This document shows positions 3,118 to 42,400 of a stretch of DNA of 44,584 nucleotides, in pieces; the first letter of the stretch is position 1, and each line of letters begins with the position of its first letter. The notes under the pieces are model-generated. The model was not told the DNA's origin and ran no database searches. It was given only the letters and a program-made list of their open reading frames with translations. The stretch covers positions 1 through 44,584 of the forward strand of contig CAYXYP010000007.1 in NCBI GenBank assembly GCA_964469405.1, in the 5' to 3' direction. Source of the stretch: an uncultured Candidatus Saccharibacteria bacterium. GTDB taxonomy: Bacteria > Patescibacteriota > Minisyncoccia > Phycocordibacterales > Phycocordibacteraceae. A program made the position numbers and the translations under genes.

Positions 3118-4527
3118 ATGAAAATTCTTTTCAAAGAAGCGGATATTGAACATGCGCCGACGGAATACGTGCGCATTCGAATCAAGCAAGAATCCAAAGG
3201 AACAAAGCGTCTTGTAAAAGAAGGCGAGATAGAGACACTGGAAATCGGAGTGTCCGCTGATATGAGCGCGCGCAAATTTATCGTGCTCTGTCGATCTATC
3301 GTAAACGCCACGAAGGCGAACAAATCAAAAAAAATAGCGATTCAATTTGAGCTCATTCCAAAACTATCTAAAAATCCAGAGAATATTTCACCGGAGTATG
3401 TTTTGCAACTCATGGCAGAGAATTTTGAGATGGCAAATTTCGAATTCAACATCTTCAAGACGAAACCGAAAGAAGGGTGGGATGAGGTAGAAGAAATACT
3501 TTTTTGTGGGAAATCATCACCCTTGATTGAAAAAGCTGTAAAGAAAGGCCAGGAAATAGGTAGAGCAGTAAATGCCTGTCGTATACTTGCTAATACCCCC
3601 GGGGGAGATATTACCCCGACATCGCTCGCAAAAGCCGCAAAGGAGGCAATGAAAGGCTTGCCGGTTACAGTCATTATACTAGGCACCACAGAGATGAAAA
3701 AGCTCGGGATGGGTGCGCTCTTAGGTGTTGCAAAAGGTTCGACCGAACCACCAACGTTTACGATTCTAGAGTATATGGGTGGGAAGAATGCTCCGATAGT
3801 GCTTGCAGGGAAGGGCGTCACGTTTGACAGCGGAGGACTCAATTTGAAGCCTTCAAACGGTATCTATGAGATGCATATGGACATGTCGGGAGCCGCCTCG
3901 GTCATTCATGCTGTGGCACTTGCTGCGAGATTGAAACTGAACACATCGGTTATCGGTCTCATCCCTTCGGTTGAAAATATGCCTGGAAATAATGCATATC
4001 GCCCGGGTGACATATTGAAATCCCTTTCGGGGAAGACAATTGAGGTAATGAACACGGATGCGGAGGGCCGTCTCATTCTGGCCGATGCGCTTACGTATGC
4101 GAAACGCTTTAAACCATCAGTCGTCATTGACGTGGCGACACTGACCGGTGCCGCACTCTCTGCGCTCGGTCTCTACGCAAGTGCTCTCCTTACTCGCGAC
4201 GATGCTCTCGCGGAAAAAATTTCTCATGATGGGGAAGTCTCGGGTGATTATGTGTGGAGGCTTCCGCTCTGGGATGAATATGAAGACGGGGTGAAAGGGA
4301 CATTTGCTGACTTGGCGAATGCGGGGACTAGTACGTCGGGGCGTGGAGGAGGAGCAATTGAAGGGGGAATGTTTCTCTGGCAATTTGCAAAAGAGTTAGA
4401 ATGTCCCTGGGCGCATCTCGACATCGCACCTCGTATGACCTCTGCGCCGGGCGATGAGCTCGCAAAGGGTGCTGCTGGTGCTCCGGTGCGACTTCTCATT
4501 CGCTTTATAGAACAATGGAAACCATAA
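3118..4527 (+). CDS. pepA: Leucyl aminopeptidase (M17)
   Basis: GKGVTFDSGG, DMSGAA, NTDAEGRLILAD, DVATLTGA and WAHLDIA motifs. Confidence 0.95.
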   Translation: MKILFKEADIEHAPTEYVRIRIKQESKGTKRLVKEGEIETLEIGVSADMSARKFIVLCRSIVNATKANKSKKIAIQFELIPKLSKNPENISPEYVLQLMAENFEMANFEFNIFKTKPKEGWDEVEEILFCGKSSPLIEKAVKKGQEIGRAVNACRILANTPGGDITPTSLAKAAKEAMKGLPVTVIILGTTEMKKLGMGALLGVAKGSTEPPTFTILEYMGGKNAPIVLAGKGVTFDSGGLNLKPSNGIYEMHMDMSGAASVIHAVALAARLKLNTSVIGLIPSVENMPGNNAYRPGDILKSLSGKTIEVMNTDAEGRLILADALTYAKRFKPSVVIDVATLTGAALSALGLYASALLTRDDALAEKISHDGEVSGDYVWRLPLWDEYEDGVKGTFADLANAGTSTSGRGGGAIEGGMFLWQFAKELECPWAHLDIAPRMTSAPGDELAKGAAGAPVRLLIRFIEQWKP

Positions 4528-22987: not shown

Positions 22988-23590
22988 ATGGACCATATTG
23001 ACGAACTCGCTCATGCGCTCTCCCGTCTCCCGGGTATCGGTCCCCGACAAGGAAAACGTTTTGTGTTCTATCTTCTTGCGGCTCCTGCCGCTGAGCGAAC
23101 CAAACTCGCGGAACTCATAGCGTCACTCGGGAAAGACGTCCGCCAATGCCCCGAGTGTCTGCGTTTCTATAATGGTTCTGCCGCTGTAATGTGCAATTAC
23201 TGTTCTGACATAAAACGTGATGATACTCTTTTGATGATTATTGAAAAAGATCAGGACCTCGCTGCTATCGAGCGTGCTGGTACCTATCGTGGCCGTTATT
23301 TCGTCCTTGGTGGCGTGCTGACACTCACAGGGAAAGGCGCGATTCGTGGGAAGGAGCTACTACGAACAATTGAGAAGAGACTAAAAAATAATTTAAAAGA
23401 GATCGTGCTCGCACTTTCGGCGACAAGCGAAGGTGAGCATACTGCCGATCATGTGCGAGAATTACTCGCGCCCTATCGTGACACCGTAAAAACTTCAGTC
23501 CTTGGTCGCGGTCTTGCGACCGGTAGCGAACTTGAATACTCTGACGCCGAAACCCTCCGCGCCGCGCTCACCAACCGTAAAGAAACCTGA
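22988..23590 (+). CDS. recR: Recombination mediator RecR
   Basis: LPGIGP, C4 zinc finger CPEC...CNYC, YFVLGG and ELEYSD. Confidence 0.94.
   Translation: MDHIDELAHALSRLPGIGPRQGKRFVFYLLAAPAAERTKLAELIASLGKDVRQCPECLRFYNGSAAVMCNYCSDIKRDDTLLMIIEKDQDLAAIERAGTYRGRYFVLGGVLTLTGKGAIRGKELLRTIEKRLKNNLKEIVLALSATSEGEHTADHVRELLAPYRDTVKTSVLGRGLATGSELEYSDAETLRAALTNRKET
23493..23590 (+). repeat. Direct repeat copy 1 (3' end of recR)
   Basis: 98 nt, 90/98 identical to 24351-24448, with the first 61 nt identical. Confidence 0.95.
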
Positions 23591-23593
23591 TTC

Positions 23594-23628
23594 TATACAT
23601 GAAGGGTTTCGTAAACCCTTCATGTATA
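23594..23628. repeat. Left REP-like hairpin
   Basis: tatacatgaagggttt-cgt-aaacccttcatgtata, a perfect 16-bp stem. Confidence 0.9.
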
Positions 23629-23640
23629 ATGATGAGTAAA

Positions 23641-24324
23641 ATGAATTTGTGGCATGTACTAAACCGAGGTGTTGAAGGACGCGACCTTTTCCTAGATTCG
23701 CAAGATTATGCACGCTTCGTTCACAACCTCTATGAGTTTAATGATAGCGCTCCAGCCGATAATCTCTCACGGCTTTTTGATCCGTCTGGAATAAGGGATT
23801 TCGTAAACCCCTCATTTAGAAAAGCACGCGAGCGATTAGTGGATATTCATGGCTGGGTCTTGATGAAAAACCACTATCACCTTTTACTCTCTGAACGTAT
23901 CGAGGGCGGTATTAGTCTATTCCTTCGTAAACTGAATGTCGGTTATGCGAATTATTTCAACGAACGATATAGACGAAAGGGGACGTTATTTCAAGGCCGT
24001 ACCAAGAAAATCTTAGTTGAGCGCGAATCGCATTTCCTTTACATTCTTCATTATCTTCACCTTAATCCACTTGATTATTTACAGGGCGCGCAAGAATGGC
24101 GTGCGCGTAGCAAGAGCGGCATTCGGAATGCAAACGAGGCGCTAGATTATCTTGATTCATACCGATGGAGCAGTTATCTTGACTATATCGACAAGAAGAA
24201 CTTCCCTTCCATCCTTACTACTTCGTTTTTTAAAGAAGCGCTTGATGATTATCAAGGTTCACTTAGAGAATACCTTGGCGATGCCGAGCATGATAATATT
24301 ATTGTAAAATTGACTTTGGAATGA
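23641..24324 (+). CDS. REP-associated tyrosine transposase (RAYT / Y1 HUH family); start may be 23632
   Basis: WHVLNRG, LMKNHYHLL (HUH), YFNERY-x3-GTLFQGR, YLHLNP and YRWSSY. Confidence 0.9.
   Translation: MNLWHVLNRGVEGRDLFLDSQDYARFVHNLYEFNDSAPADNLSRLFDPSGIRDFVNPSFRKARERLVDIHGWVLMKNHYHLLLSERIEGGISLFLRKLNVGYANYFNERYRRKGTLFQGRTKKILVERESHFLYILHYLHLNPLDYLQGAQEWRARSKSGIRNANEALDYLDSYRWSSYLDYIDKKNFPSILTTSFFKEALDDYQGSLREYLGDAEHDNIIVKLTLE
23791..23815. repeat. Degenerate REP-like copy inside the transposase coding sequence
   Basis: ataagggatttcgtaaacccctcat compared with atgaagggtttcgtaaacccttcat. Confidence 0.75.
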
Positions 24325-24347
24325 AGGGTTTACGAAACCCTTCATTC
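24319..24347. repeat. Right REP-like hairpin (inverted copy of the left)
   Basis: gaatgaagggttt-acg-aaacccttcattc, a 13-bp stem; its 25-nt core is the exact reverse complement of 23599-23623. Confidence 0.9.
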
Positions 24348-24350
24348 TGT

Positions 24351-24448
24351 CTTCAGTCCTTGGTCGCGGTCTTGCGACCGGTAGCGAACTTGAATACTCT
24401 GACGCCGAAACTCTCCGCGCTGCCCTCACCAACCGCAAAGAAGCTTAG
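24351..24448 (+). pseudogene. Orphan duplicate of the recR 3' end (direct repeat copy 2)
   Basis: Reads SVLGRGLATGSELEYSDAETLRAALTNRKEA*, with no upstream gene body. Confidence 0.9.
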
Positions 24449-28743: not shown

Positions 28744-30240
28744 CTATCCCCCACTCGTGAGGCGTCTGGTGAACACATAGATGGGGTATGCGAGCACCAG
28801 CATGATGAGAATGATAGTGATAAGCGTGAGCCGGTTTGTGGCATTCACAATGTCGAGAATATCCTGTTGTGGTTTTGCGGCCGAGAGCATACCGACGACC
28901 TTATCGTCGCCGCTCATGAGCGGCAGATAGCTCGCAAGAAATGTCTGGCCAAAGAAGCTCGCCGATGCTGTCACATTCTGGCCGCCCTTGAGTACCGAAT
29001 TTTCCACCTCGCTGTTCCCAAGCGGGATGTTGGTCAAGCGTGTACGGCCATCCTCGGTAAACGCGGTCGCCGCGATAGACATATCGTTCTCATAGACAAA
29101 CATCTCAAGCCCCGTAACACGCTTGATGCCGTCCACAAGCGCATTATCGAGCGGATAACCGGCGATGGCCGCACCAACCACCTTACCCTTGTGCGTGACG
29201 GGCGCGCCCGCGCGAATAGAAAGCTTCTCCACGGGACTGTTCTCAACCGTAACGAACGTTGTACCATGAAGCGCTTCTTCAAGCGCGCGTTCTCCCGAGA
29301 GAGAATCTCCGCGTTTTGAAAGCGCATGTGCACGGATAAGTACGGTGCCCTGTGCGTCGGTAATGGTTACGAATCCGAGGGTATAACGCTCCATAAAACT
29401 CTCCGCTATCGTCTCTAGTGTCAGAAAATCGTTTGTGGCAATCGCGTCCCCGAGCCGAGGATCTGCCGAGAGAAGTGCGGTTTCCGCGAGCGATTCTTGC
29501 TGCAGCCCTTTGATATGCAAATCCAGTACCCGAGCATCGGTAAGAAGACTCGTTTGCGTCTGACTGGTTATCTGCGTAATGAGAATAGTTGAGAACGCGA
29601 GCGTGACAATAGTCGAGAGGAGGAGCGCTACCGAGATAAAGATAATGATTAGACTTTCTTGAATACGCAGAGCAAGAAACTGCCATACCCATGCGATAAG
29701 GAACAAGAAGCCAGCCAGCTCAAATGCATAACCCGTGAGAGAAAAGAGACTGATCTCATTACCCTTCGCAAAAATCGTAAGCACTGATGCGATACCAAGA
29801 AGTAAAAAAGCAATTGAGAACGACCTCCACGTAGGATTGAATTCCTTTTTTGATTGCAAATTTGAAGCGTATGCAATGGCGATAAGAAGAATCGCCCCGA
29901 CACCGTGAAGCAATCCTTCAAAAGCCGTAAAGGAAGGGATGATGAGAATAGCCGGCATTGCCGCGAGCCGTTGTTGTTTAAGAAAGCTGCCAAGTATGCA
30001 AACGAGCCCTATGACAAAGAGCGTAAAACCGATAAAAGAGAGCAAGTCACTCCCCGTATTAATCGCGGCAATAACTTGCCACAGTGCAACAAGTCCAAAA
30101 CCAAAAGTTCGCACCAGTATTCTCCCCTCTTTGCTCACCGAATACGTATCAAAGGTAAGCCATGCCGCCATGAAGAGCGCTACCGCTCCGAGCAACTCAA
30201 GCGCGAAGTGAAAATTATTTATAAAGAAATAAAAGGACAT
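28744..30240 (-). CDS. Multi-TM membrane protein with Cache domain and no output domain
   Basis: About 7 N-terminal hydrophobic segments, Cache-like FVTITDAQG...GKVVGA...VVGML, and a C-terminal TM; TACACT 8 nt before ATG 30240. Confidence 0.72.
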   Translation of the reverse strand: MSFYFFINNFHFALELLGAVALFMAAWLTFDTYSVSKEGRILVRTFGFGLVALWQVIAAINTGSDLLSFIGFTLFVIGLVCILGSFLKQQRLAAMPAILIIPSFTAFEGLLHGVGAILLIAIAYASNLQSKKEFNPTWRSFSIAFLLLGIASVLTIFAKGNEISLFSLTGYAFELAGFLFLIAWVWQFLALRIQESLIIIFISVALLLSTIVTLAFSTILITQITSQTQTSLLTDARVLDLHIKGLQQESLAETALLSADPRLGDAIATNDFLTLETIAESFMERYTLGFVTITDAQGTVLIRAHALSKRGDSLSGERALEEALHGTTFVTVENSPVEKLSIRAGAPVTHKGKVVGAAIAGYPLDNALVDGIKRVTGLEMFVYENDMSIAATAFTEDGRTRLTNIPLGNSEVENSVLKGGQNVTASASFFGQTFLASYLPLMSGDDKVVGMLSAAKPQQDILDIVNATNRLTLITIILIMLVLAYPIYVFTRRLTSGG

Positions 30241-30260
30241 GCTAGTTAAGTGTAGCCTAC

Positions 30261-30294
30261 TTATTGCAAGATTTTTTCTATCTTGTTCATAAGT
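30261..30294 (-). repeat. Orphan duplicate of the redoxin gene 3' end
   Basis: 33/34 identical to 30819-30852; encodes LMNKIEKILQ*. Confidence 0.9.
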
Positions 30295-30343
30295 GTGGAT
30301 TGGCACCGATGTTCCGTTAGTTACACTCTTTTTTAAAAGAACG

Positions 30344-30565
30344 CTATTTTAGATCTTCTATAGTTAGTCCTGCATCTTTCATAATGCTCGAAAGAGTGCC
30401 AGCTTTGAGTTGTTTATGGAGTGGCACGGTAACTTTTTTCGCATTCGGATTAAAGTCAGGAGGGTACAATCTGGCGTGACTCCCCTTTGTTCTTACTTCG
30501 GAATACCCTTTCCGTTCAAGAATTTTCATCAGCGCGATACCAGAAAGTACGGGCAACTTTGGCAT
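30344..30565 (-). CDS. hicA: HicA family toxin
   Basis: KILERKGY...TKGSH...VTVPLH...GTLSSIMK pattern. Confidence 0.88.
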   Translation of the reverse strand: MPKLPVLSGIALMKILERKGYSEVRTKGSHARLYPPDFNPNAKKVTVPLHKQLKAGTLSSIMKDAGLTIEDLK

Positions 30566-30568
30566 GCG

Positions 30569-30781
30569 TCAAACTGTAATCAGATGGAGGCTTACGTCAT
30601 CGTTTTCTACCGAAAAATTTTTTTGATCCTCAAGACATAGAAGCGTTGCTTCTTTGATATTCGCAAGGGCCTCTTCCACCGTCTCGCCCTGAGAGTAGCA
30701 ACCCTCAAGAGCGAAGTTGGTTACCGAGTAACCACCCTCTTTTTCCTTTTGCAGAATTATAGGATACATGCCATGTTGCAT
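30569..30781 (-). CDS. hicB: HicB family antitoxin, short form
   Basis: GGYSV...GCYSQGETVEEALANIKEA; TGcTATACT 6 nt before ATG 30781. Confidence 0.88.
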   Translation of the reverse strand: MQHGMYPIILQKEKEGGYSVTNFALEGCYSQGETVEEALANIKEATLLCLEDQKNFSVENDDVSLHLITV

Positions 30782-30818
30782 GTCGACAGTATAGCACACA
30801 GAGAAATGGGACAAGGTT

Positions 30819-31385
30819 TTACTGCAAGATTTTTTCTATCTTGTTCATAAGTACGCGCTGGCTGAGTACACCAGAATATACCTCTCGAATGACCCCAGCA
30901 CGATCCACAAAAAAGAAGGTCGGTACGCTCTTAATACTGTAATGCTCGCTTGTAATACCTTCTGCATCAAGAAGTGTCTGCACCTGATATCCTCCGCGCC
31001 TCATAAACGAGGAAACGACACTCTTTTCTTCTTGGCTATCGATGGCAACAACTTTTACCAACCGGTTTTGCGAAGTTGTATCTGCAAGATACTGGTCAAG
31101 GATATGTATTTCGTCAGCTGCCTGTGTATTCCAGGTCGACCAAAACACGATGACGAGAGGAGTGTCGGTGAAGTCACTACTCCGCACGCGGTCTCCGATG
31201 AGATTAGGCAAGTCAAAATATGGCAGCCGATTGTTCAAGAGCCCTACGCCGGAGATAGGGGCACCGGTAGCATTCTCCCCCGTAACATCGAGTACGAGTC
31301 CTGACCCGCCCAGATACACAACACCGAAAAGAGTAGCGAGCACCGCCACACCAATGAGCAGAGTTGTGAGATGAGAAGTTTTCAT
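30819..31385 (-). CDS. TlpA/ResA-like membrane-anchored redoxin lacking cysteines
   Basis: FDLPNL-x-G, VIVFWSTWNTQA, SVPTFFFVD and G-x-IRE; no Cys anywhere in the protein. Confidence 0.8.
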   Translation of the reverse strand: MKTSHLTTLLIGVAVLATLFGVVYLGGSGLVLDVTGENATGAPISGVGLLNNRLPYFDLPNLIGDRVRSSDFTDTPLVIVFWSTWNTQAADEIHILDQYLADTTSQNRLVKVVAIDSQEEKSVVSSFMRRGGYQVQTLLDAEGITSEHYSIKSVPTFFFVDRAGVIREVYSGVLSQRVLMNKIEKILQ

Positions 31386-34300
31386 AATGAGAAGATGCGG
31401 TCAATCATACGCTGTATGAACCCCCATATGCCGCTGAATTTTTCAGTCGAGAAAGATACATTCACAAAACCGGCACGTTCAAGCGTAATCTTTTGCGCCA
31501 TACTGCGGTATCCGCTCTTGCGGAGAGAAAGTTCATACATCCCTTGCGGGAGAGCAAGCGCATACTCCCCTTGTGCGTCGCTCGTGATTACGGATGACGA
31601 AGAGAATGGAATGGAATTCCCCGTTCTCTCGTCCAATACTAACACCTTGATACTGGCTCCCGAGAGAGGTTCTGTGTTTCCGTCAGGAATGGATGTCGTA
31701 ACCACACCGTATTTTATGGCGACAAAAGATCCAATGGGTGTTCGAATGAGTACATTGCGCGTCTTGTCTTCTGCACTAATGTATATCGTCGTTGTTCCTG
31801 TACTACCAGAGTCAACCGTCGCTTGCCACAAGCCAGAGACAATATCTTTTTCTAAAGGAATGGTTGTACTGCCAAGTGTTAGAGACGCACTGTTCGTATC
31901 TCCCTCGAGCGATACTTCAAACAAGGTTTTCATTCCTTTATAAAGGGAGATGGCACCCCGTGCATCTGGAACAATACGTACTTCCTGCGCCATCACGTCG
32001 AAACTGCCGATGCGCGGTGGCGAAGCATCGACCGTGACAATGCGTGAGAGCATCGGCGAGACATTGCCGGCGGCGTCTACCGCTCGCACATAGACCGTGT
32101 ACGTCCCATCCTCAATTTTTGTCGGATACTTCAGAGTAAAGGTGGCATTCTCCTGTAAGAAGCCCCCGGTCAGTAATGTCGTGGAGAATGACGTCGGCTT
32201 ATCCTGTGTTACCGCGTATTCGACATATTCGATACCCGAGAGAGAGTCTTGTGCCGTGCCTCGACCGAGCAGAACATCACCTTCCCCAAGTACCGATGCG
32301 CCAAGCGTAAAAGAAGAGAGCACCGGCGGGGTCCTGTCGACCGAGAAATTCACGGTGTCAGTGCCGGTTGCCATACCATCGTTTGCGGCAAGTCGGAGCT
32401 GATAATCATTTGCCTCAGGGAAAGCGGAGGCATCGAAAGCGAAAGAGTTTTTAGCTTGGTCTATCGGTAACAATTTATACGCCTCATGGCCACGCCGATA
32501 TCCTAGAGTGACATTTTTTATCGAATCATTGTCCGCATCAGTAATCCTCCACGATACCGTCGCTTTCCCCATGAGCCCGCGGAATGGTTTTGGCGCAAGG
32601 ATAGAAACCGTTGGCGGATTGTCATACACTACATTCACGATTGAGGCGATACTTGTATTAAGCGCTTCGTCGCGAGCTATAATCTTAAATTGATTCGTTC
32701 CTCGATGTGGTACATCAACCGCACGGAAGATGAAGCTCCCGTCTACTCTCACCTTCTCAGTGAGAGTAGTGCTCTCATTCTGCAAGATAACGACGCTCTG
32801 CGGCTCGGCAGTACCAGAGATACTTATCTGCAACCCTTCTTTTGAGGCGTTTTCATCCTTGTTATTAGACACTAAAGTGTTGTTTGCGGGAGAGTTCACT
32901 ATGGGTGCGAACGGAGCTTTCGTATCGACTATCACCGGATGACTCGTGCGGCCTGAGAGATTACGACTGTCCTTCGCTCGCCACAGTATCCCCTGCGTTC
33001 CCTCTCGAAGATCGGTGAAGGTTACCGAGAAGCGCACTTCAGGAGTGCCGCTCCCGGAGATAAGCGGGACCAATTTCCATTTATTGCCATTATCGAGGCT
33101 GTATTCAACGGTTTTGACCGTTGGTTGAGGCGAAATGGCACTCGGCGTGATAGCGCGCCCGACGATTGCTGCGGTCGATAGATTAGTTATCGTCTTTCGA
33201 CCATCTTCAAAACGGAAGAATGGGAGCGTATTGTGGATGGAAAATGGAGTGGGGTTCGAATACGTTTTTGCGAAACCATCATCTGCCATGACACGCAAGA
33301 AATATTGCCCGTCTTCCACTTCAGTGGAGTCCCACGAGAAGCTCGGAGCTGGTAGTGCATCGCCAATGATGTTCCATTCGTTCTTCGTCGACGTAGCGGC
33401 CACGGTCGCATCAAAATCTTGTGCAGGAATTATTTGGTAGGTAAACAAGAGAGGGTCAGTATTCTCGTCCCCCGCTCGCGCTGTGAGCGCGACAGTTGCG
33501 CTCACAATCGCCTTATCCGTAGGCAAAGAAATCGCAACGGTCGGCGCAATATTGTACTTAATCTGAATCGGCATTGCTTCGCTCATAAGCCCAGTCTGAT
33601 CGCGCGCCCTGACGCTCAAAACATTGAGCCCGTGATTCGTGTCCTTGCTCAGACGAATATTTGAAATAGTAAACACACCATTTTGAGTTGAGCTTGCCAC
33701 ATACGTATCGATACCGTTGACGAGAAGTACTGCCACGGTATCGGAACGCGGGAGAGTGCCAGCCACCGCAACCATGCTCGTCCCGACCACGACATTATTT
33801 TGCGGAGACACGACACTCGGCGCCGGTGGTGGATTAATGCCCACCGCAAACGTACCTCCGCTCACAATAGTCGTCCCAACATTGCCGGCAACGTCAGTAC
33901 CGGAAACGGTAACATTAGCCACGCCATCGTACCCCTTACTGATAATATAGGTTCCTTCATAATGACTGCCCTGCCCCGTCATGACGAGCGATACTGCTTT
34001 CCCGCCAGCTTGCGTAACAGTAATCGTCGGCGCCTCTTGTAGATTTTCCGAGACGTCGACGCTGATGGTGACATCTTTACCCTGTGTTGCTGGCGGATTT
34101 GCTCTTGTGATAAAGGTCGGCGCGGTAAAATCCACCGTAAAGAAATCCGAGACGGTTTCTCCGGAAGTCCCCGCCGCGTCGATAACATTCGCAATAATTC
34201 GATAGAAAACTCCAGGGATGAGGTCGGTAATGCTCCAAGAATAAGAAGCTTCTGCGGGCTGTTTCTCCGCAATAAGCGTTTTAAGGTCCGGAGCGATAGA

Positions 34301-34993
34301 CGCGCCGCCACTGTACCACTCAGCAATCTTGTCCGAGTAATAGAGCGTGACCGGGGTTTTCAGTAAGCCGTAGACATCTCTTTCACTTTGATTCCCTTGG
34401 TCATTGCGGTCGGTCGCTGTATAGCTAATAGTTCCAAGATGCGAAAAAATGGTGCCAACTTTTGGAGAGAAGATGCTGATGCTAGGGCCATACTGAGGAG
34501 TGCCGGCGGATGGAGTCTGTAATTCGTTTTCAGAACTAGCGCCGCCGCCGCTAGGCGGCGGCGGAGGCAGTTCCACCGAGAAAAAGAATTCGTTGATGAA
34601 TTCCGGCGCCTGTCGACACTCGTCTATACTCTGTTGCGACTGATAACAGGGAATATCCGGCGATGTATGCTCCATGATAACGTACCGGCTTTCGGTAAGG
34701 ACCAGGTCGCCGAAATCGTTTCGGTTCACATCCCAGTTCGCTTCGTATCCGAACTTCAAGATCATCGGCGCGTCCGAGGTGATATTGTACAGAATCGCCG
34801 CGGCACCGCCAGATGTCGTAAGTATCTCCTCGCCTTCGAAGTAACCGGACTTATTCAGCGTTATAGCCTCCGCCTCAGTAACGAAAGAAAGAAAGAAAGA
34901 AAGAAAGAAAGCGGTCGCGAAGAACAACAGGAACCGTGAGTTCCGCAAGGGAAACGCGACACGCACACTATCGGTTCTCTTGAGCGGACGCAT
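31382..34993 (-). CDS. Large secreted Ig-like repeat surface protein (start uncertain: 35008 TTG, 34993 ATG or 34966 GTG)
   Basis: Signal peptide, repeated D-x-AGN and D-x-T-x-P beta-sandwich motifs, and a C-terminal carboxypeptidase-regulatory-like segment (DAQGEYAL...G-x-Y-x-L). Confidence 0.8.
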   Translation of the reverse strand: MRPLKRTDSVRVAFPLRNSRFLLFFATAFFLSFFLSFVTEAEAITLNKSGYFEGEEILTTSGGAAAILYNITSDAPMILKFGYEANWDVNRNDFGDLVLTESRYVIMEHTSPDIPCYQSQQSIDECRQAPEFINEFFFSVELPPPPPSGGGASSENELQTPSAGTPQYGPSISIFSPKVGTIFSHLGTISYTATDRNDQGNQSERDVYGLLKTPVTLYYSDKIAEWYSGGASIAPDLKTLIAEKQPAEASYSWSITDLIPGVFYRIIANVIDAAGTSGETVSDFFTVDFTAPTFITRANPPATQGKDVTISVDVSENLQEAPTITVTQAGGKAVSLVMTGQGSHYEGTYIISKGYDGVANVTVSGTDVAGNVGTTIVSGGTFAVGINPPPAPSVVSPQNNVVVGTSMVAVAGTLPRSDTVAVLLVNGIDTYVASSTQNGVFTISNIRLSKDTNHGLNVLSVRARDQTGLMSEAMPIQIKYNIAPTVAISLPTDKAIVSATVALTARAGDENTDPLLFTYQIIPAQDFDATVAATSTKNEWNIIGDALPAPSFSWDSTEVEDGQYFLRVMADDGFAKTYSNPTPFSIHNTLPFFRFEDGRKTITNLSTAAIVGRAITPSAISPQPTVKTVEYSLDNGNKWKLVPLISGSGTPEVRFSVTFTDLREGTQGILWRAKDSRNLSGRTSHPVIVDTKAPFAPIVNSPANNTLVSNNKDENASKEGLQISISGTAEPQSVVILQNESTTLTEKVRVDGSFIFRAVDVPHRGTNQFKIIARDEALNTSIASIVNVVYDNPPTVSILAPKPFRGLMGKATVSWRITDADNDSIKNVTLGYRRGHEAYKLLPIDQAKNSFAFDASAFPEANDYQLRLAANDGMATGTDTVNFSVDRTPPVLSSFTLGASVLGEGDVLLGRGTAQDSLSGIEYVEYAVTQDKPTSFSTTLLTGGFLQENATFTLKYPTKIEDGTYTVYVRAVDAAGNVSPMLSRIVTVDASPPRIGSFDVMAQEVRIVPDARGAISLYKGMKTLFEVSLEGDTNSASLTLGSTTIPLEKDIVSGLWQATVDSGSTGTTTIYISAEDKTRNVLIRTPIGSFVAIKYGVVTTSIPDGNTEPLSGASIKVLVLDERTGNSIPFSSSSVITSDAQGEYALALPQGMYELSLRKSGYRSMAQKITLERAGFVNVSFSTEKFSGIWGFIQRMIDRIFSL
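34883..34910 (-). repeat. Simple sequence repeat (TTTC)7 in the signal-peptide coding region
   Basis: Seven perfect GAAA units on the + strand, encoding FFLSFFLSF. Confidence 0.95.
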
Positions 34994-35366
34994 TATCCGA
35001 GCCGCCAACGTTCAGCGGTGCGACTTCGACGAGCTTCTTGATAATCGGGTCATAGAGGTATGCCTTGCGTGCCGTCGAGTAGAGAAGCACTTTGTCTCCT
35101 GCTTTCGCATTGGCAAAAAACGGCTGGTCTTTCAAACGCCCGGGATCGGACACGGTTGCGACGGTCGGTGTCTCTCCTTCGGGAAGGACAATCAGGGCGC
35201 TGATTTCCGCGACAAGAGACTCAACTTCATTCGCGGTAATGGATTGCTGGTCAGTCTTTAGTTTTTGCGCTTCAGAATAAAAATAATAAGCCGTGCCACC
35301 CACCCCGAGCATTATAACAACGAGAATGCCGATAAGGATTTCTTGAATGTACCTTTTCATCTGCAT
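34968..35366 (-). CDS. Conserved hypothetical membrane-anchored protein
   Basis: TM followed by LPEGETPTVATV, QPFFANAKAGDKVL and AYLYDP (family recalled from CPR genomes); TGgTACACT 7 nt before the ATG. Confidence 0.75.
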   Translation of the reverse strand: MQMKRYIQEILIGILVVIMLGVGGTAYYFYSEAQKLKTDQQSITANEVESLVAEISALIVLPEGETPTVATVSDPGRLKDQPFFANAKAGDKVLLYSTARKAYLYDPIIKKLVEVAPLNVGGSDNASAQENR

Positions 35367-36425: not shown

Positions 36426-39400
36426 TTAATTGCTCGTCGGAGTATTTTCCGGAGGAGAAGCAGGGGCGGATGGTGGCTCGGGTTCATGAGTAGGCTCCGG
36501 CGCAGGTTCAACCGCTGGCTCTTCTAGTGGCGGCGCAGGCGTATCAGAGGTTGGTTCAACTACCGGAGGATCCTCGATGACCGGAGGCGTGGATGTTGCG
36601 CCGGTCTCTTCAGCCGGTGCGGCTTCTGGCGGGGTATCCTTGGCTAGCGGTGTTTCTTCGGAAGTCGGTTCCTTGGATGGAGCAACTTCAGGGAGAACGT
36701 CTGGTTCGGATTGGGCTGTGTTTCCTTGGTTTTCCGGCACCGACTCAGGCGGAATCTCGGGTGGATCTTCGGGTGCAGCTGGCACTACTGATACCGATTC
36801 AGTGGTGCGCGCGCCCTTCACCGCGAGCGCGATCCAGTTGAAGGAGATGTCTTCTCCTGCGGGTTTGTTCAAGAATATTGTGAAGCCGGTCGTCGTGGCA
36901 TTGCCGATCAGGAACCGTATGTCTTTCCCGAGGAGCGCTTGGATTGCTACAGCGCTTTGCTTGCTTGCTGCGATACCGTCCGAACTAGACAGGGTTGCAT
37001 GTACAACTGGCTTTTCAAGGTATTCGCGCTCGAAGGCGATGCGCACTTCGCTGTCCCCTTTCTTCACCACGGCAAAACCGGCCATATCCCGCGTGAAGTA
37101 CGGTGTGCCGAAGAAGATGATGTCGGGATTGACCTTGATCGCCTCGGCAAGCGCATCGAGCGTGTCTACACGCAGGCCGTTTGCGACGATGCGCGGCGCG
37201 AATATCTCGATCCCCGCATTCAGGCGATCAGTAAATATCTCGGAATCGAGCGAAGAATTGCTATCAATCGTCGCCTTGTAGTCGCGGAGGAATTCGAGGA
37301 TATCGAGCTCGCGATCAGCAGTAATGAGCGTCGGAGTAGCGGCGGCTTGCGGCGAGCTAGTCGAGACGGCAGTGAATGTCGCGGTCGTGGTCGTAGCCGA
37401 GAGCACGAACACATCTTCGGGCACGCACTCTTCGATCGTGCTCGCCGTACCGTCCGTACTCGTCACACTGTCCGAGGCACCACACGAAGGAAGCGCGGGC
37501 GCCGCCTCCGTATTTTCGCTTGCTGGCACAACCCCCTCCGCAAGCGCAATCTCCTTCTTTTCATTCATCAAGACCGAGAGCGAGAGGCCGCCGTAGTCCA
37601 CGAGATTGACGAACACCATCACCTGCCCGCATCGCTTCTTCGACAATCCTTCCAGATCATCGGGGCAGTTTGCAAGCTGTTCGACATCCATATTCTCCAG
37701 CGCCGCGCCCATCACGCGCCCGGCTTTCGTCGCACGCATGCCGTACCCAGCGGTGGGCGAGGCCGCGATGCGATCCCCCGCTTTTATAATGCCGTTTTCA
37801 GTCGTTACCTTCACCGGCACGCGGCCGACGAGTGCGACGGGGTAGGTGTTCTCCACGTACGCGCCAAGAACAATACCGGGCTTTGTCGCAACCACACCAA
37901 GTACATTCTTTTGATACGCGCTCGTCGCCATACGCACTTTCTGCGCTTCGGTGCCGTCCACCGCTACAATGTGTCCCGCCTCGAGCGGATCGTCAGAGAC
38001 GTAATTTTCCGCGAGGTCGACGCCGTTGCCTACTCCCAGCGTGTTTTGCGTAGAGCCGAACAAGTAGTGCGATATCAATTCTTGCTGGATTCCGTTGATG
38101 GCGCCGATAAGGAGAAGACGGTCCTCTTCCGCGCTCGCATCGCTCTGCGTAGCGCGGATGAACGCGAGCGATCCGTATGCAACCGTGCCGGATTGCACCG
38201 CAATCGCCTGAATGTCGTCCGCGTCAGTTCCCGACCAAGCGCTGCCGAAGTCGTCGGCGGAGACATCTGCATCAGAGTGAAGGGCGTCGATCACATACGA
38301 TCCAACACCTACGTCAGAAAGAACAGTCACCGCACCTCCGTCCGTACCATCACTCGTACCCACGTAGACACGCCGCGCTTTGCCGAACTGCACCATCGGG
38401 TCAACCGCAACGGCAGTCACATTGTTACTCGCACCTATCAAGTGTTCGGGGTCAACCTCAAAATCCGACGTGGTATCCGGTGTCGTGCCCCAGTTGGATT
38501 GCACGGTAATCACGGTCGCCGTGTTTGAAATAACGCGGCGCGTCTGGCCCGCACCCGTACCCCCCGTGATGGTGACTATCTTGCCGACAAACTCGTTCGG
38601 AATCCACGCCTCACCCGAATCACCAATAGTATTCACGCTCACCGTCGTCGCGGCCGTAACGGCTCTGTTTTTCTGCATGAGATGAGTGCGGCCGTCGAGG
38701 TAGAGCACATTTGCTCCGTCTGTAGTGACACCGCTCGCCGTTGAGGCGAGGTTTGAACTCCAAACGAGGTCGTCGATAGAACCGTCCCAAAAGTTCGCCC
38801 CTGTTGTGCAGTTGGCGGCCGAACATGTTCCACCGACGGTAACTATTTGAGTGGTTGCGGTGTCGAGTGTGGCAGCGGCGGTGAGCCCTGTGTCGCACGC
38901 CACAGCCTGCTTACCATCGATGTACATACAGATATCGGTGTCGGTGTTGGTGAAGACTGCGTGATGCCACACGTTGTCATTGTAGGTTCCCGTTGACGTA
39001 ATAAGGTCATCGTAAGATGTTTGGAGAGTAAATGTTGCATCATCGTCAATAGCGAATATTATATTGCCGGCCGCATTCATTCCTGTATAAATGCATCCGA
39101 CTGTCTGCGCCGGAGTCGAGTTCCAACATCTTTCAACCAAAGTATCCGCTGCTGCTGTCACACTGTGTTTGAACCAAAGAGAAATAGTAAAACTCACGGC
39201 AACGACGTTGTAATCGGCATCGCTGTCGCAGGTGCCGTCAGCGTTTGCATCGGAACACAGGTATGAGTTGTTATTAAGGGCCACCGAATTACCGCGGACG
39301 CCGTCCCCGCCGAAAGTGGGGGCTGTCGCGGCGGCGCTGTCGAGAACATTACGCGTGGAACCCGCGACCCCCATGGCGCTGTGCGATCGTGTGGCCCCAG

Positions 39401-42400
39401 TCGGCTCCTCAAAGAGGAACACACTGCGAGGAGCCGCTGGGCGAAGCGGAGTCGAGGTCGCCGTCGTAAGTACCTTCGTCCACGAGCCGGACGTGCCCGC
39501 GATAAGGTTGCCACCCGAGTCGTGAATCTCGACGAGGCCGAGGTTGGTGCCGAAGAGCACGACATCACCCGCATCGTTGTTGCTGGCTGCGGCGGCTTCT
39601 TTCGCCTTCGAGGCACGTTCAATAACTGAAATCGTTGAAGGCGAGGTGAGAATGGTCGGCACCGCACCGGTAGCGGTGATCGCACCATTGGCCGCCGTCT
39701 CATCGTACGTCTCGTCGGGCGTGCCGTTCGCCTCGGCTATGAGGTCGCGATCCAGGTTGCGCCATGTCTCAAGTTGGGCTTGGGTTTCATTTGCCGCGTA
39801 CATACGGCCGCGCGAGGTCAAATGTACCGTGTTGTAGTCGTCGTTTGTTACATCCGAATAGTTCAACACTTTTTGGTATTCGGGGTGGATAACGCTCACG
39901 CCTGAATCATTCGCAACCGCGACAAGCACCGTGCCGCGCAAGGGGCCTGAACCGGAGTCGAGCGGCAAAGTGGGGGTGTTACCCAGCGCGTCCGCGTTAC
40001 CGAGTTGCATCGCCGCCGAGACGTCGTTGACTACTCCATTGAGGATCCCGAGACTGGTTACCGCATTCGTCGCATATGCAGTAGTTGTGTTTCTGTTCGC
40101 GATGTCCTTGTCTCCCTGTGTTCGATCGACCGCATCGTAGTTGTACATACGGTCTTGCGTAAAGTCGAACGCGTAGAGTCCCGTTGCCGATGCGCCATTG
40201 GCGCCGACATAGATAACGCCATTCACCGCGCCGACACCAGACGGATTGTTGTTGGTATCTGCGCCAAGCGCGAAGGTGCCGCCAGACTGTGTGAATTTCA
40301 TCCAAAGAGTGTTGTCCTTGGCGTCGAAGATATAGAGGCCGTCGACAGTCGTCGCAAGAATCGCTTTACGGGGGAATTCGGAAGAACCGCATCGATCGTC
40401 TGTCGCGATAACGCACGGATCCGACGGTCCGTCGTCCTTCGTCTCCGTGTACCACGAGAGTCCCGAGGCCCTGTCGTTCTTGCGCCAGGCGCCTTTGTCG
40501 CTGTCCTTTGTCGTGTCATAAATTACCATGTCTATGATGTTGGCGAGTGAGCGCTGGATCGTGTAGCCCTTACTTATGACGTCACCGTATACGTTGATAT
40601 CCGAACGACCATTTTCGGCACTCCCCACCGTAAGACCTCCCGTCTCGGACACAGCGAAGAGGTCAACCCCCGCGTCGTCTTCAACGAGCACTGGGAAACC
40701 TGTGTTTTGTGACTGGTCCACAACAATGTGGAGTCCATTGCCCGTGTAGGCATTTGCATCTACGGCATCCATCGTTATCTGGAGCGCGTCACCTGAATAC
40801 GTTCCGCCTGTTGCAGGATTCGGCGAGAGCTGAAGGAGATCGTGAGAACTGCCTGCTGCTGCCGTCTCGGTAATCACGACTGGAGTTGCCGCTGCAGTCT
40901 CAATCGTTGCTCCACTAGTGTATGCGTCTTGCAAGTTACTGCTCCCGCCACCACTTATCGTACAGTCGGTCTGCCCTGTACCGTTCACACAGTTCACTCC
41001 CGCACCAGTGAAGTTGAGGGTTGTAAATTGCGTGAGCGGAGTGTCTTCATTTTCAATGGTTGCATATCCCCCACCACCAGCCGATGATGTCGCCATAAGT
41101 ACCAGGCCGCCGGTAACGTTTGACCACCCAACGACTTGGCCACCAGTACCTATTCCGTAGAGTGTGGAGGTCGCGATAGCTGTTGGAACCGCGCTCCCTG
41201 CCGTTCCGTTCGCTAAGACGGTATTTGCCGCTTGTGCTGAGAGACTTCCGCCACTGAGACACGTGCCGTTCACCGCGTAGCATTGGTTCGCTGCAAGGTT
41301 GATGCCGTTGCCGTAGAAAGTGGTGGTGCCAGTGGTGAAGTTGGCGATGCCTTGGATGGAGAGAAGTGAGCCAGGGGTGGTGGAGCCGATGCCGACATTC
41401 CCGTTATCAAGAATCTGCATCAGTGTCGTAGAGGCATTATTGATGACTGAAAATGCCTGCCCGATGCCTGTGCCGCTGCCCCAAACAGAGAGTTTTGAGT
41501 AGGGCGAGGTGGTGCCGATGCCCACGTTGCCAGCGGTTGTAGAAAGTAACACCGTCCCATCAATGAGTGATGTTCCACCCAGTCCTACATTATCAACCCA
41601 CAAAGAGTAGTTTTTACCCGAGACGACGGTGGTGGTAGCGGCTCCTTCTATGTAGAAAGAAGCGGTGTTGGAGACGGTGGCGGCACCAGCAGTAATAACG
41701 AGTGGTTTTATAGCGAATTGGGAAAAGAGAGGGTGGTTTCCTGACACTCCTTCAGTGGGAGAAAGTTGTGATACTAGTATGCGAGCAAACGAACGGTCTG
41801 AAAGGATAGCTAGAGCCGGGCTTGTATTAGCGAAGGCGACTACTGCAGCAGTGTTAGCAGAATTAAGTGTAAGCGTGCTGTCAGAAAACCACATTTGTCC
41901 AGCAATTCGCAACTGTCCAGTAGCGCCAGTAGCGCCAGCGTCAAGAGAAGAGCTTTCTAGAAACATTCCATTTCCAGTGAGTGTACCCGTTGAGGTAAGA
42001 GATGTACTAAACGTCTTTCCCCCTGCAATCGTCTGCGTCCCCGTCGTTACCAATCCATTCGCCGTTGCTGAAGCAGGCGGGATATTTAATGTATGCACGC
42101 CCCCAGCAGAAGTAATCGTAAAGTTTGTACTGGCTGTCGTGGAAGTAGCAAATGTTTGTATTGCTCCAGTTTGAGCATTGAGAGAAGTGATACCGCCAAG
42201 ACAAGAACCGTTCACCGCATAACATTGGTTCGCTGCGAGATTGATACCGTTGCCGTAGAAGGTAGTGGTACCGGTAGTGAAGTTGGCGATGCCTTGGATG
42301 GAGAGGAGTGAGCCAGGAGTAGTGGTGCCGATGCCGACGTTTCCATCATTCATCACCGTGAAGAGCGTCGTCGAAGCAGAGTTAGCAATTTCAAGTGCTT

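Follow-up and report, generated by a model that had tools for sequence, protein, structure and literature searches.

A predicted Class 2 hicBA toxin–antitoxin pair in a pre-existing cassette slot between a redoxin gene and a Cache-sensor operon of a groundwater Parcubacteria chromosome

Introduction

How does a toxin–antitoxin pair come to lie between two operons, enclosed by two copies of the last codons of its upstream neighbor? This question is raised by a locus in the 44,584-nt stretch of DNA analyzed here (the window), in which the redoxin, hicB, hicA and Cache genes all lie on the minus strand and a direct repeat of 34 nt encloses only hicB, hicA and short spacers. Comparison with related genomes showed that hicBA lies in a pre-existing cassette slot at the redoxin/Cache-operon junction of a groundwater Parcubacteria (Patescibacteria) chromosome. 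The evidence for the slot, for its earlier content and for the way in which the present arrangement may have arisen is set out below.

Results

Layout of the cassette

A repeat search placed the two copies of the 34-nt direct repeat at 30261-30294 (TTATTGCAAG...) and 30819-30852 (TTACTGCAAG...), with 33/34 positions identical (97%) and a spacing of 558; by our arithmetic, the chance expectation of such a match in window-sized DNA is about 1e-10. The sole other comparable repeat pair in the 44.6-kb window is a 92-nt pair around a RAYT gene. A possible third 34-nt copy at 18481, 68% identical, was treated as a chance match. Copy 1 corresponds to the last 10 codons and the stop of the redoxin gene (...LMNKIEKILQ*, CAG TAA), and comparison of homologues showed this tail peptide to be native to redoxins. 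Copy 2 reads CAA TAA and is located 20 nt upstream of the ATG of the Cache-sensor gene, which is followed in its operon by a PAS histidine kinase and then a receiver (Pfam). On the minus strand, the order within the cassette is 37 nt, hicB, 3 nt, hicA and 49 nt.

An initial annotation of the locus had described hicBA as bounded by a duplicated redoxin tail whose copies differ at one site (CAG versus CAA before TAA), with the antitoxin gene first, a short HicB of 70 aa without a DNA-binding domain and an extended -10 promoter of its own. The repeat coordinates and the position of hicB upstream of hicA, 3 nt apart, agree with this description; Pfam and PDB alignments bear out the reading of HicB, and the promoter, which stays a prediction, is common to homologous hicBA loci.

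Table 1. Features of the hicBA slot and of the analogous recR locus
Feature	Position	Strand	Details	Basis
Cache gene	28744..30240	-	membrane Cache-domain sensor; downstream neighbor of the slot; heads the sensor operon	Pfam
Putative -10 of the Cache operon	30249..30254	-	TACACT; 8 nt before the ATG	inferred
Cache-proximal pseudo-tail	30259..30294	-	repeat copy 2 (30261-30294, CAA TAA) plus 2 nt
Spacer	30295..30343	-	49 nt; 3' part (..ggtgccaatccac) adds QST codons to the pseudo-tail
hicA	30344..30565	-	toxin, 73 aa; GSH motif at the catalytic-histidine position	Pfam PF07927, 9e-16
hicB	30569..30781	-	antitoxin, 70 aa; partial RNase H-like neutralizing domain only	Pfam PF15919, 4.5e-9
Predicted hicBA promoter	30788..30796	-	extended -10 TGCTATACT; 6 nt before the hicB ATG	read from sequence
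Probable relic of REP hairpin 3' arm	30804..30818	-	AACCTTGTCCCATTT	15/15 vs L024, 14/15 vs L025
Repeat copy 1	30819..30852	-	functional redoxin 3' tail; codons LMNKIEKILQ + TAA, CAG variant
Redoxin gene	30819..31385	-	AhpC/TSA, TlpA-like; upstream neighbor of the slot	Pfam, homologues
Analogous structure at the recR 3' end	23493..24442	+
recR tail	23493-23584	+
REP hairpin	23601-23621	+
RAYT ORF	23599-24324	+
Inverted REP	24323-24343
Second recR tail copy	24351-24442	+	96% identical

Class assignment of the hicBA module

HicA matched HicA_toxin (PF07927) with 58.1 bits (curated cutoff 27) over profile positions 4-58 of 58, spanning the dsRBD-like domain, and its structural matches were PDB 1WHZ (3e-5) and the Burkholderia HicA structures 6G26 and 4C26. 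The segment KGSHARL was aligned to GS(A)HH of 6G26, and the histidine of the GSH motif is presumed to be the catalytic one, as in the family. HicB matched HicB_lk_antitox (PF15919) with 36.9 bits (cutoff 27) over profile positions 1-47 of 123. In the solved structures of HicB, 6HPB and 6U0I, it aligned with residues 3-57, the match to their N-terminal domains being at 1e-3; it also matched the short HicB-like protein 2YZT. The C-terminal HTH/RHH DNA-binding domain of classical HicB (Classes 3/4) is absent from the 70-aa protein: no Pfam match was found past residue 63 of its 81-aa reading (residue 52 of the 70-aa protein), and the PDB alignments end at residue 50. In this family, HicA cleaves RNA and HicB neutralizes it by binding.

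From these sequence features, the module is predicted to be a compact Class 2 hicBA type II toxin–antitoxin system. Class 2 loci, one of the two most prevalent classes, have closely linked genes in the order hicB to hicA, a HicB of 63-103 codons with a partial RNase H fold only and no recognizable DNA-binding domain, and a HicA of about 60-85 aa (Gerdes 2024, mBio, PMC10865869). Here, too, hicB comes first, HicB is small and has no DNA-binding domain, and the two genes are closely linked; nothing essential differs from the published class. Particular to this case are a leaderless-type promoter, TGCTATACT-N6-ATG, and membership of a Patescibacteria-restricted subfamily: among 128 HicA homologues, all those with an organism name were from Patescibacteria except one archaeal match. 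The arrangement TGCTATACT-N6-ATG was also found upstream of hicB in the hicBA loci L035-L037 (HicA P0068, 81% identical), and the hicBA mRNA would be leaderless. A scan of the coding strand of the block for promoter and terminator consensus sequences returned none, and did not list TGCTATACT because it has no -35. In the single metatranscriptome searched, no hicBA signal was seen, and the Cache gene was present at a depth of only 2.

The slot in related Parcubacteria

In four loci (L017, L018, L028 and L029), the redoxin gene is joined directly to the Cache gene with a single 34-nt copy, which is the junction that the initial annotation had suggested looking for in relatives. The locus thus has the form of an integrative element, in that its direct repeats include a gene tail and the empty site has one copy. 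Other relatives carry in the slot a RAYT, a single-copy Y1 transposase-like gene between inverted REP hairpins. Type 1 (Y1 transposase gene) was found in L024 and L025-27, while type 2, which is inverted and only 40% identical to type 1, was found in L032-34. All of the RAYT-bearing loci have a drifted real tail and a pseudo-tail adjoining the Cache gene. Their duplication reaches past the palindrome formed by the repeat (see below), is 48-92 nt long and is drifting. The GTDB representative genomes yielded neither a relative of the Cache protein nor a synonymous tail variant, and IMG/VR yielded no copy of the 34 nt.

These loci bear on the model implied by the initial annotation, according to which hicBA was inserted de novo behind the redoxin gene and its arrival created the duplication, with 34 nt of the host tail as a target-site duplication. 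The single copy at empty sites and the one-site difference between the repeats are consistent with such an event. Nevertheless, the same Cache-proximal copy is present in relatives without hicBA (L024, L025 and L032), with a RAYT between the copies, which contradicts the model and is an observation that the annotation had itself named as speaking against it. Moreover, the upstream extension of the distal copy is unlike the host tail, the opposite end of the cassette holds a REP relic, and the cassette has neither a transposase nor terminal inverted repeats. To our knowledge, 34 nt exceeds the target-site duplications of known transposon families. De novo insertion is highly improbable, and a transposon with target-site duplication was rejected on the lack of terminal inverted repeats and transposase and on the age of the duplication, which predates the cargo. 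No tail duplication flanks three further hicBA loci of this subfamily (L035, L037 and L043); the duplication therefore belongs to the site and not to hicBA.

An analogous structure was found within the window at the 3' end of recR. The duplication there is 92 nt long and unrelated in sequence to the 34 nt, and the architecture is the same, so that the likeness to the RAYT cassette at 23.5 kb claimed in the initial annotation stands. In the metagenome, the REP belonging to the recR RAYT occurs in multiple copies. Joints skipping about 697 nt at this RAYT were attributed to dispersed REP copies matching both REPs, and were rejected as signs of excision.

Relics inside the cassette

The position of AACCTTGTCCCATTT after the tail is the same as that of the REP flanking the RAYT gene at this site in L024 and L025. 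No complete copy of an L024/L025-type REP was found in the window. At the other end of the cassette, alignment showed homology between the 3' part of the 49-nt spacer and the right end of the relatives' RAYT cassette, the identity of the spacer to that cassette being only about 60%. The spacer contains 'caatccac', which is the real tail of L024 and L025 and differs from 'cagcgcgt', the window's own. The cassette thus appears to carry relics of an earlier RAYT cassette, namely a REP remnant and a QST extension. Together with the pseudo-tail of the RAYT-bearing relatives, these relics suggest that hicBA replaced a RAYT in a slot of this kind.

Strain variation in the Hainich aquifer

More than 10 independent assemblies, drawn from several wells and runs, contained the same occupied sequence. 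Across contigs of co-occurring Hainich aquifer strains with different flanking alleles, the 592-bp block was 592/592 identical, and the flanking alleles diverged exactly at the outer edges of the repeats. Identity to the other strains was 76-90% in the 200-600 nt beside the block and 96-100% further out. With such close similarity (96-100%) between the strains across most of the operon, an invariant block alone is no proof of horizontal spread. The depth of the shared 586-nt unitig was at least that of the two flank-variant unitigs summed (22.4 vs 16.7 in X5 and 67.5 vs 59.2 in X6), and contigs broke at a shared 55-mer. Mosaic recombination was seen in A' (L019), which resembles A near the block and B further upstream.

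A single-repeat, cassette-free allele coexists with the occupied allele. The occupied contig L016 and the empty contig L017, both from well H43, have the same left flank over the 25 nt available; the empty allele of the same species is known from one contig, L017, with a coverage of 7. Loss of the cassette probably proceeds by recombination or slippage between the repeats. In Logan contigs of eight runs (7 DNA, 1 RNA), no joint skipping 558 bp was detected, although a 31-mer cannot span both a flank base and the G/A site, and k=31 unitigs cannot separate empty from occupied sites.

Many contigs break at the repeat, as would be expected if the repeat or the empty allele had been made by metagenome assembly, and misassembly had also been raised in the initial annotation. 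Nevertheless, the occupied form is the same in the more than 10 assemblies, which were made with different assemblers, and in Logan unitigs. The 55-mer at which contigs break is common to different alleles, as real strain variation predicts, and the repeat, with 30 exact nt, falls short of k=55 and so cannot collapse an assembly. An assembly artefact can be practically dismissed.

The conserved hairpin and the start of the Cache operon

Copy 2 forms an interrupted hairpin or palindrome, ACTTAT-GAA-CAAGAT-AGAAAAA-ATCTTG-CA-ATAAGT. The 34 nt are identical (34/34) even between lineages with no more than 67-83% identity in the flanking coding DNA, and no other long tract is perfectly conserved between diverged alleles. 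The inner helix was paired in 98% of cells, with two pairs changed on both sides (covariation), and G-U 'pairs' are tolerated in the stem. Recombination joints fall in this conserved hairpin-forming element of 34-36 nt, which precedes the Cache operon; selection appears to maintain the distal copy as a cis-acting part of the operon that follows. The putative -10 of this operon, TACACT, is represented by TAYACT in relatives (GCTAYACT in A, B, D, E and F; TTAYACT in C and G), with the variants GTATACT in I and TCTATAAT in H. No Rfam family matched the junction.

Alternatively, a site-specific recombinase encoded by the host, either of the tyrosine/Xer type or a Y1 HUH enzyme acting on the hairpin, might use the palindrome as its core site. 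Two inverted arms of about 14 nt would surround a 7-nt asymmetric spacer, and cassettes would be inserted and excised in trans, as with dif modules, IMEX elements and floxed cassettes. The length and limits of the repeat coincide with the palindrome, the architecture is a direct site–cassette–site arrangement with single-site empty alleles, and three different cargos have been found at the same site. The G/A difference lies outside the spacer and always segregates as expected for an exchange to its left. Against this stands the lack of a recombinase gene beside the cassette or in the scanned part of the window, where a Pfam scan of 35 ORFs, exclusive of those at 19.1-23.0 kb and two giant ORFs, identified none. 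The tolerated G-U in the stem points to a single-stranded RNA or DNA element and not to a duplex protein site, and the longer duplications in RAYT-bearing relatives and the unrelated 92 nt at recR argue for a sequence-independent process. No resemblance to dif consensus sequences was seen, and GC skew shows no switch at the site and therefore gives no support to a dif/terminus reading. Taken together, a recombinase core site is distinctly unlikely. Equally doubtful is the broader proposal that the palindrome is a dedicated site at which a recombinase or Y1 HUH enzyme, acting in trans, would swap promoter-bearing cassettes (two RAYT types and hicBA), with the recR 92-nt duplication and the three tail-duplicated RAYT cassettes representing an undescribed, tail-duplicating mode of RAYT insertion in compact CPR genomes.

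Proposed history of the locus

The account that we favor, with a probability of roughly 0.6, is that a Class 2 hicBA came to lie in a pre-existing slot in place of a RAYT, and that the unit was joined to the redoxin allele by recombination within the 34 nt. To judge from the relics, hicBA would have replaced the RAYT gene inside the slot, with 15 nt of REP, the spacer and a QST-type pseudo-tail extension unlike the host tail surviving the replacement. Recombination within the conserved 34 nt would then have placed the unit of about 558 bp beside the present redoxin allele and produced the two near-identical 34-nt repeats. A Campbell-type single crossover of a circular copy is a possible route; copy-choice between repeats, or crossovers of an imported flank ending in the 34 nt, may have served as alternatives.

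The same observations can be read without a transplant. The slot, holding first a RAYT and then hicBA, may have been vertically inherited in the species, the conserved pseudo-tail having converted the real tail of the redoxin gene within the genome, which would account for the near-identity of the two copies. The sharp boundaries would then reflect imports of diverged flanks, which can end only in a perfectly conserved stretch, and the empty alleles would be later deletions or imports. Given strain identities of 96-100% away from the junction, the invariance of the 592-bp block fits a clonal frame, the mosaic A' (L019) makes recombination evident, and the 34 nt are the sole long tract of perfect conservation between the diverged alleles. 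Nevertheless, this history needs a conversion tract ending exactly at the edges of the conserved element and at least two imports per side, each ending at that element, and in L024, L025 and L032 the real tail has stayed unconverted over a comparable time. We consider it unlikely.

Comparison with known mobile systems

Several known types of element were compared with the cassette and rejected. An integron gene cassette has an attC site, which is an imperfect palindrome of 57-141 nt with R''/L''-L'/R' boxes, is usually promoterless and lies near an integron integrase or an attC array. Here the repeat is 34 nt with a 6+6-bp stem, the cassette has a predicted promoter of its own, no GTTRRRY core box was seen by eye, no integrase was found in the scanned part of the window, and there is no array. 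Elements mobilized by Y1 transposases have subterminal hairpins at both ends and make no target duplication. An IS200/IS605-type or REPIN element does not fit, as the cassette has half of one REP only (30804-30818), no second REP and a 34-nt duplication.

Sites of pdif/Xer modules are 28 bp long (XerC-6-XerD) and are usually inverted around the module. They are found on plasmids, and the modules are often toxin–antitoxin pairs. A pdif/Xer module was rejected here, the repeats being direct, the spacer 7 nt and the arms unlike the dif consensus. Acinetobacter pdif modules and IMEX, which depend on XerC/D, are likewise small and recombinase-free, have palindromic sites of about 28 bp and are shuffled among replicons (PMC6449649, PMC13141974). 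The repeats of the slot, in contrast, are in direct orientation on a chromosome, are partly coding and do not resemble the dif sequence.

Genomic islands and SCC-type cassettes sit in the 3' end of a conserved gene, and some such elements are without a recombinase of their own. They likewise consist of tail, cargo and second tail copy, with exchangeable cargo and an excision that leaves one copy. The slot differs from SCC-type cassettes in that it has no integrase or Ccr, the unit is only 558 bp, and the duplication in relatives is 48-92 nt long and drifting. Campbell-type insertion-duplication, as in plasmid integration in naturally transformable bacteria, yields a homologous segment, an insert and a second homologous segment, and is reversible by recombination between the duplicates. 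That process is known as a laboratory outcome involving hundreds of bp of homology, whereas the present case would be natural and involve 30-90 nt. The hicAB genes of the Haemophilus influenzae hic locus were reportedly first noticed as a small insertion between conserved genes in some strains; that locus differs from the window in gene order, in a HicB with a DNA-binding domain and in its flanking repeats.

RAYTs are described in the RAYT papers queried as single-copy, vertically inherited genes (PMC3116915, PMC5581495). Neither these queries nor a text search of PMC5581495 brought up a flanking duplication of a neighbor's 3' tail. Compared with the RAYT/REP (REPIN) systems, the present loci comprise three RAYT types with tail duplications, one of them apparently replaced by hicBA.

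Discussion

As a toxin–antitoxin system, the hicBA module is ordinary and falls into the commonest HicAB class. In the addiction role proposed for it in the initial annotation, the toxin, being longer-lived, would be set free once the cassette is lost, which may disfavor deletion of what the slot contains; hicBA could equally well act in phage defense.

The significance of the locus lies in its slot, the occupant of which appears to alternate, in an uncultivated lineage with small genomes, between a supposedly sedentary RAYT gene and a toxin–antitoxin pair. The joints left by recombination fall within a short, conserved hairpin element, which doubles as a gene tail. Compact genomes may thus accept insertions between packed genes by duplicating the overlap of a coding tail with the cis element of the next operon, and a slot of this kind can pass to a toxin–antitoxin pair, which may lock it. 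With occupied and empty alleles present together in one aquifer, gain and loss of the cassette are directly testable.

Layout of the hicBA cassette

A repeat search of the window found a 34-nt direct repeat with one mismatch (33/34) and a spacing of 558, enclosing hicBA as the initial annotation had described. All genes of the locus are carried by the minus strand. The only comparable repeat pair in the window, of 92 nt, lies around a RAYT (Y1_Tnp transposase-like) gene at 23.5–24.4 kb.

Features of the redoxin–Cache junction and of RAYT cassettes with duplicated gene tails (window positions unless a contig is named)
Feature	Position or length	Strand	Remarks
Copy 1	30819-30852	minus	true end of 188-aa AhpC/TSA-type redoxin, …LMNKIEKILQ-stop; CAG TAA
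Spacer, copy 1 to hicB	37 nt	minus	
hicB	30569-30781	minus	70 aa; PF15919, 4.5e-9, first 47/123 profile positions only
Spacer, hicB to hicA	3 nt	minus	
hicA	30344-30565	minus	73 aa; PF07927, 9e-16
Spacer, hicA to copy 2	49 nt	minus	
Copy 2	30261-30294	minus	CAA TAA; 20 nt upstream of membrane Cache-domain sensor ATG
recR RAYT cassette	23493-24442		Y1_Tnp, 241-aa ORF directly after recR
Inverted REP hairpins, GAAGGGTTTCGTAAACCCTTC	23601 and 24323		flank the recR RAYT
RAYT cassettes of relatives	L024:3064-3735, L025:3647-4306, L032:3129-3800		duplicated upstream-gene 3' tail

HicA is alignable to the solved structures 1WHZ and 6G26, with a GSH motif at the position of the catalytic His, and HicB matches solved HicBs over their N-terminal neutralising domain only. 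Class 2 modules, one of the two most prevalent HicAB classes, place hicB first and have a small HicB that lacks a DNA-binding domain (Gerdes 2024, PMC10865869). Judged from its sequence, the pair fits that definition exactly and is ordinary for its class. The antitoxin-first order and the short HicB without a DNA-binding domain proposed earlier were borne out by Pfam, the structure alignments and the class definition. The putative promoter of its own, likewise proposed earlier, is the extended −10 TGCTATACT, 6 nt upstream of the hicB ATG. TGCTATACT-N6-ATG recurs at the hicBA loci most like this one in other Patescibacteria, where HicA (P0068) is 81% identical, and the putative promoter is therefore taken as part of the module. 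With this spacing, the hicBA mRNA is probably leaderless. Judging by its family, HicA is presumably an RNase toxin that HicB would neutralise by binding.

Repeats of this kind are absent from other loci of the same hicBA subfamily. At the closest of these, contigs L035 (2238) and L037 (226) are 99.9% identical from 44 nt 5' of hicB onward and carry unrelated DNA 5' of that point. Here too the boundary is abrupt and falls right ahead of the hicBA promoter; nearby is a DGR-like bAvd/RVT_1 pair. In another Patescibacteria lineage (L038), two copies of a stretch of 300 nt or more (1036-1335 and 4160-4459; 82% identical), each covering a whole DsrE gene, enclose 3.1 kb with SHOCT, hicBA, a 346-aa ORF and OmdA.

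Upstream of the redoxin, two giant minus-strand ORFs encode putative surface proteins: 31382-35008 (1208 aa), with weak or faint Big-type Ig-like matches in gene-call tables, and 36426-44540 (2704 aa), in which a 180-nt stretch is repeated internally (41257 and 42199; 81% identical) and GC is higher, at 0.53–0.58.

RAYT cassettes and empty sites at the same junction

In two lineages with a redoxin about 80% identical (contigs L024 and L025-27), the junction holds a 219–223-aa Y1_Tnp/RAYT gene with inverted REP hairpins (AACAAGGTTAAACCTTGTT) on either side. A different RAYT (40% identical, other REP, opposite strand) takes this place in a more distant lineage (L032-34). In all three RAYT-bearing lineages the redoxin's own tail has drifted, with 24–27/34 positions matching the 34-nt element, and a second tail copy adjoins the Cache gene; this copy matches the window's 34 nt at 34/34 positions in L025 and 33/34 in L024. 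The duplication had by implication been tied to the arrival of hicBA, a claim contradicted by relatives without hicBA (L024, L025, L032), which carry the second copy. On this comparison, the slot is older than hicBA.

Directly after the redoxin TAA, AACCTTGTCCCATTT matches the L024 REP 3' arm and following bases at 15/15 positions, and the 49-nt spacer resembles the right end of the L024/L025-27 (type-1) cassette, with about 60% identity in the alignment. The spacer ends in caatccac, encoding the QST of an …NQSTLMNK… tail as in the real tails of L024 and L025, whereas the window's own tail reads QRV (cagcgcgt). As aligned, the window cassette keeps relics of a type-1 RAYT cassette. Identity of the window's two copies ends with the conserved element, not with the end of tail homology, and the site is therefore read as a recombination joint; this limit and the QST/QRV mismatch speak against fresh duplication of the host's own redoxin tail.

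The recR RAYT cassette has the same tail-duplicated architecture: the final 92 nt of recR occur on either side of the RAYT in copies that are 96% identical, and the distal copy adjoins the stop of a convergent response-regulator gene. The REP of this cassette occurs in multiple copies in the metagenome, at depth 230 where the baseline is 17 (run X5). The three RAYT types are 38–40% identical mutually, each with its own REP and a duplicated upstream-gene 3' tail; two of them share the redoxin–Cache site, where they point in opposite directions. In two types the RAYT coding region itself contains a degenerate copy of the type's own REP hairpin, placed alike in a variable N-terminal part (window 23791-23821, L032:3608-3630); the L024/L025 type has no such copy.

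The direct redoxin-to-Cache junction predicted for relatives was found. A DNA-pattern scan returned two contigs, L017 and the more distant L018, with one 34-nt copy (CAA TAA) and the redoxin joined straight to the Cache gene; redoxin homologues P0025 and P0013 also lie at empty junctions (L028, L029). L017, from Hainich well H43, shares 97% identity with the window across 5.4 kb, and its 25-nt left flank equals that of an occupied contig from the same well (L016). It is the sole within-species empty allele, at coverage 7, and cannot be a simple assembly collapse because the k=55 contig spans both flanks over a 30-nt exact repeat. At L028:1287-2780, gene calling gives two ORFs of 192 and 266 aa for the Cache sensor, which may be split or frameshifted.

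A conserved hairpin element

The Cache-proximal copy is conserved at 34/34 positions in lineages A (the window), B, C, D and F, 33/34 in E and 32/34 in G, against only 63–83% identity in neighbouring coding DNA. Between A and D, we calculate the chance of 34/34 as about 0.71^34, roughly 1e-5. With the next two bases (30259-30294), it is predicted to fold into an outer helix (ACUUAU/AUAAGU) and an inner helix (CAAGAU/AUCUUG) separated by GAA and CA and closed by an AGAAAAA loop. When nine lineages are compared, pairing holds in 98% of the inner-helix cells, two pairs have changed on both sides and several are G-U. The observed covariation score was reached in only 2/500 shuffles, a suggestive result given that just nine related sequences were used. 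Because G-U is tolerated, the hairpin is more likely one of sense-strand RNA or single-stranded DNA. Rfam holds no family for the hairpin or junction, and IMG/VR no copy of the 34 nt. Homologues of the interrupted 12-bp hairpin occur in L017, L018, L024, L025, L028, L029 and L032; those of L029 and L032 show compensatory changes.

Where a second copy is present (L024, L025, L032), the hairpin has been lost from the redoxin's own tail; the element therefore appears to serve the Cache side, for which we infer a promoter-proximal or 5'-UTR sequence. A conserved TAYACT lies downstream.

Strain variation and mechanism

Exact-protein look-ups placed the source of the locus in Hainich groundwater metagenomes; named redoxin and HicA homologues belong to Parcubacteria/Minisyncoccia/Patescibacteria. 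Every base of the 592-bp block (repeat, hicBA, repeat) is the same in contigs with flanking alleles A, A' (L019, a mosaic of A and B), B and C, which differ from the first base beyond either repeat. Recombination breakpoints are firmly placed at the outer edges of both repeats. SPAdes contigs of different alleles stop at one common 55-mer (the 34-nt repeat plus 21 nt), and one 586-nt Logan unitig spans 30267-30852, its depth at least the sum of the two flank-variant unitigs compared (22.4 vs 16.7 in run X5; 67.5 vs 59.2 in X6). The block also occurs beside an 88%-identical flank in a run from another study.

The backgrounds are not distant organisms, being 96–100% identical across most of the Cache operon, with 76–90% identity confined to the 200–600 nt abutting the block. 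The invariance of the block therefore fits recent spread or a clonal frame. Comparison of window 29600-31400 with L011, L017, L019 and L021 shows the slot flanks as a local peak of recombination or divergence. In the occupied C' variant (L012:378-887), a T-to-A change makes a premature TAA 17 codons before the usual redoxin stop (169-aa product); this single low-coverage contig has a copy 2 reading CAGTAA at its end.

We propose that a hicBA pair bearing its own promoter took the place of a RAYT between the REP arms in the tail-duplicated slot, and that the unit of about 558 bp plus one element copy would then have joined the present redoxin allele by recombination inside the 34 nt; loss by the same route would be possible. 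A circle entering a single-copy site by Campbell-type crossover, or copy-choice from one repeat to the other, would account for every feature: the outer-edge boundaries, the fact that copy 1 always has G and copy 2 always A, and the A of single-copy empty alleles. Vertical inheritance, with the real tail gene-converted and imported flanks stopping within the sole tract of perfect conservation, would sit well with a clonal frame, but set beside the joint at the element edge we consider it rather unlikely. A dedicated recombinase could act on the palindrome (two arms of about 14 nt with a 7-nt spacer between them). A Pfam scan of 35 window ORFs shows no recombinase gene, what it covered being otherwise core chromosome (including tRNA synthetases, cell-wall genes, ScpAB and RecR), and this reading seems quite improbable.

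Of the initial account, the observation and the hicBA pair stand, and dating of the duplication from hicBA arrival does not. The slot is a variant of known cassette and att-duplication themes; its less ordinary part is a shared tail-duplicated slot alternating RAYT, hicBA and empty states, with a conserved hairpin element as boundaries. By analogy, hicBA might stabilise the slot or act in phage defence. Duplicated tails may be a general signature of RAYT-cassette insertion in Parcubacteria. As the redoxin coding tail overlaps the neighbour's putative cis element, only events keeping both would survive, which suggests an explanation for duplicated tails at insertions in this compact genome.
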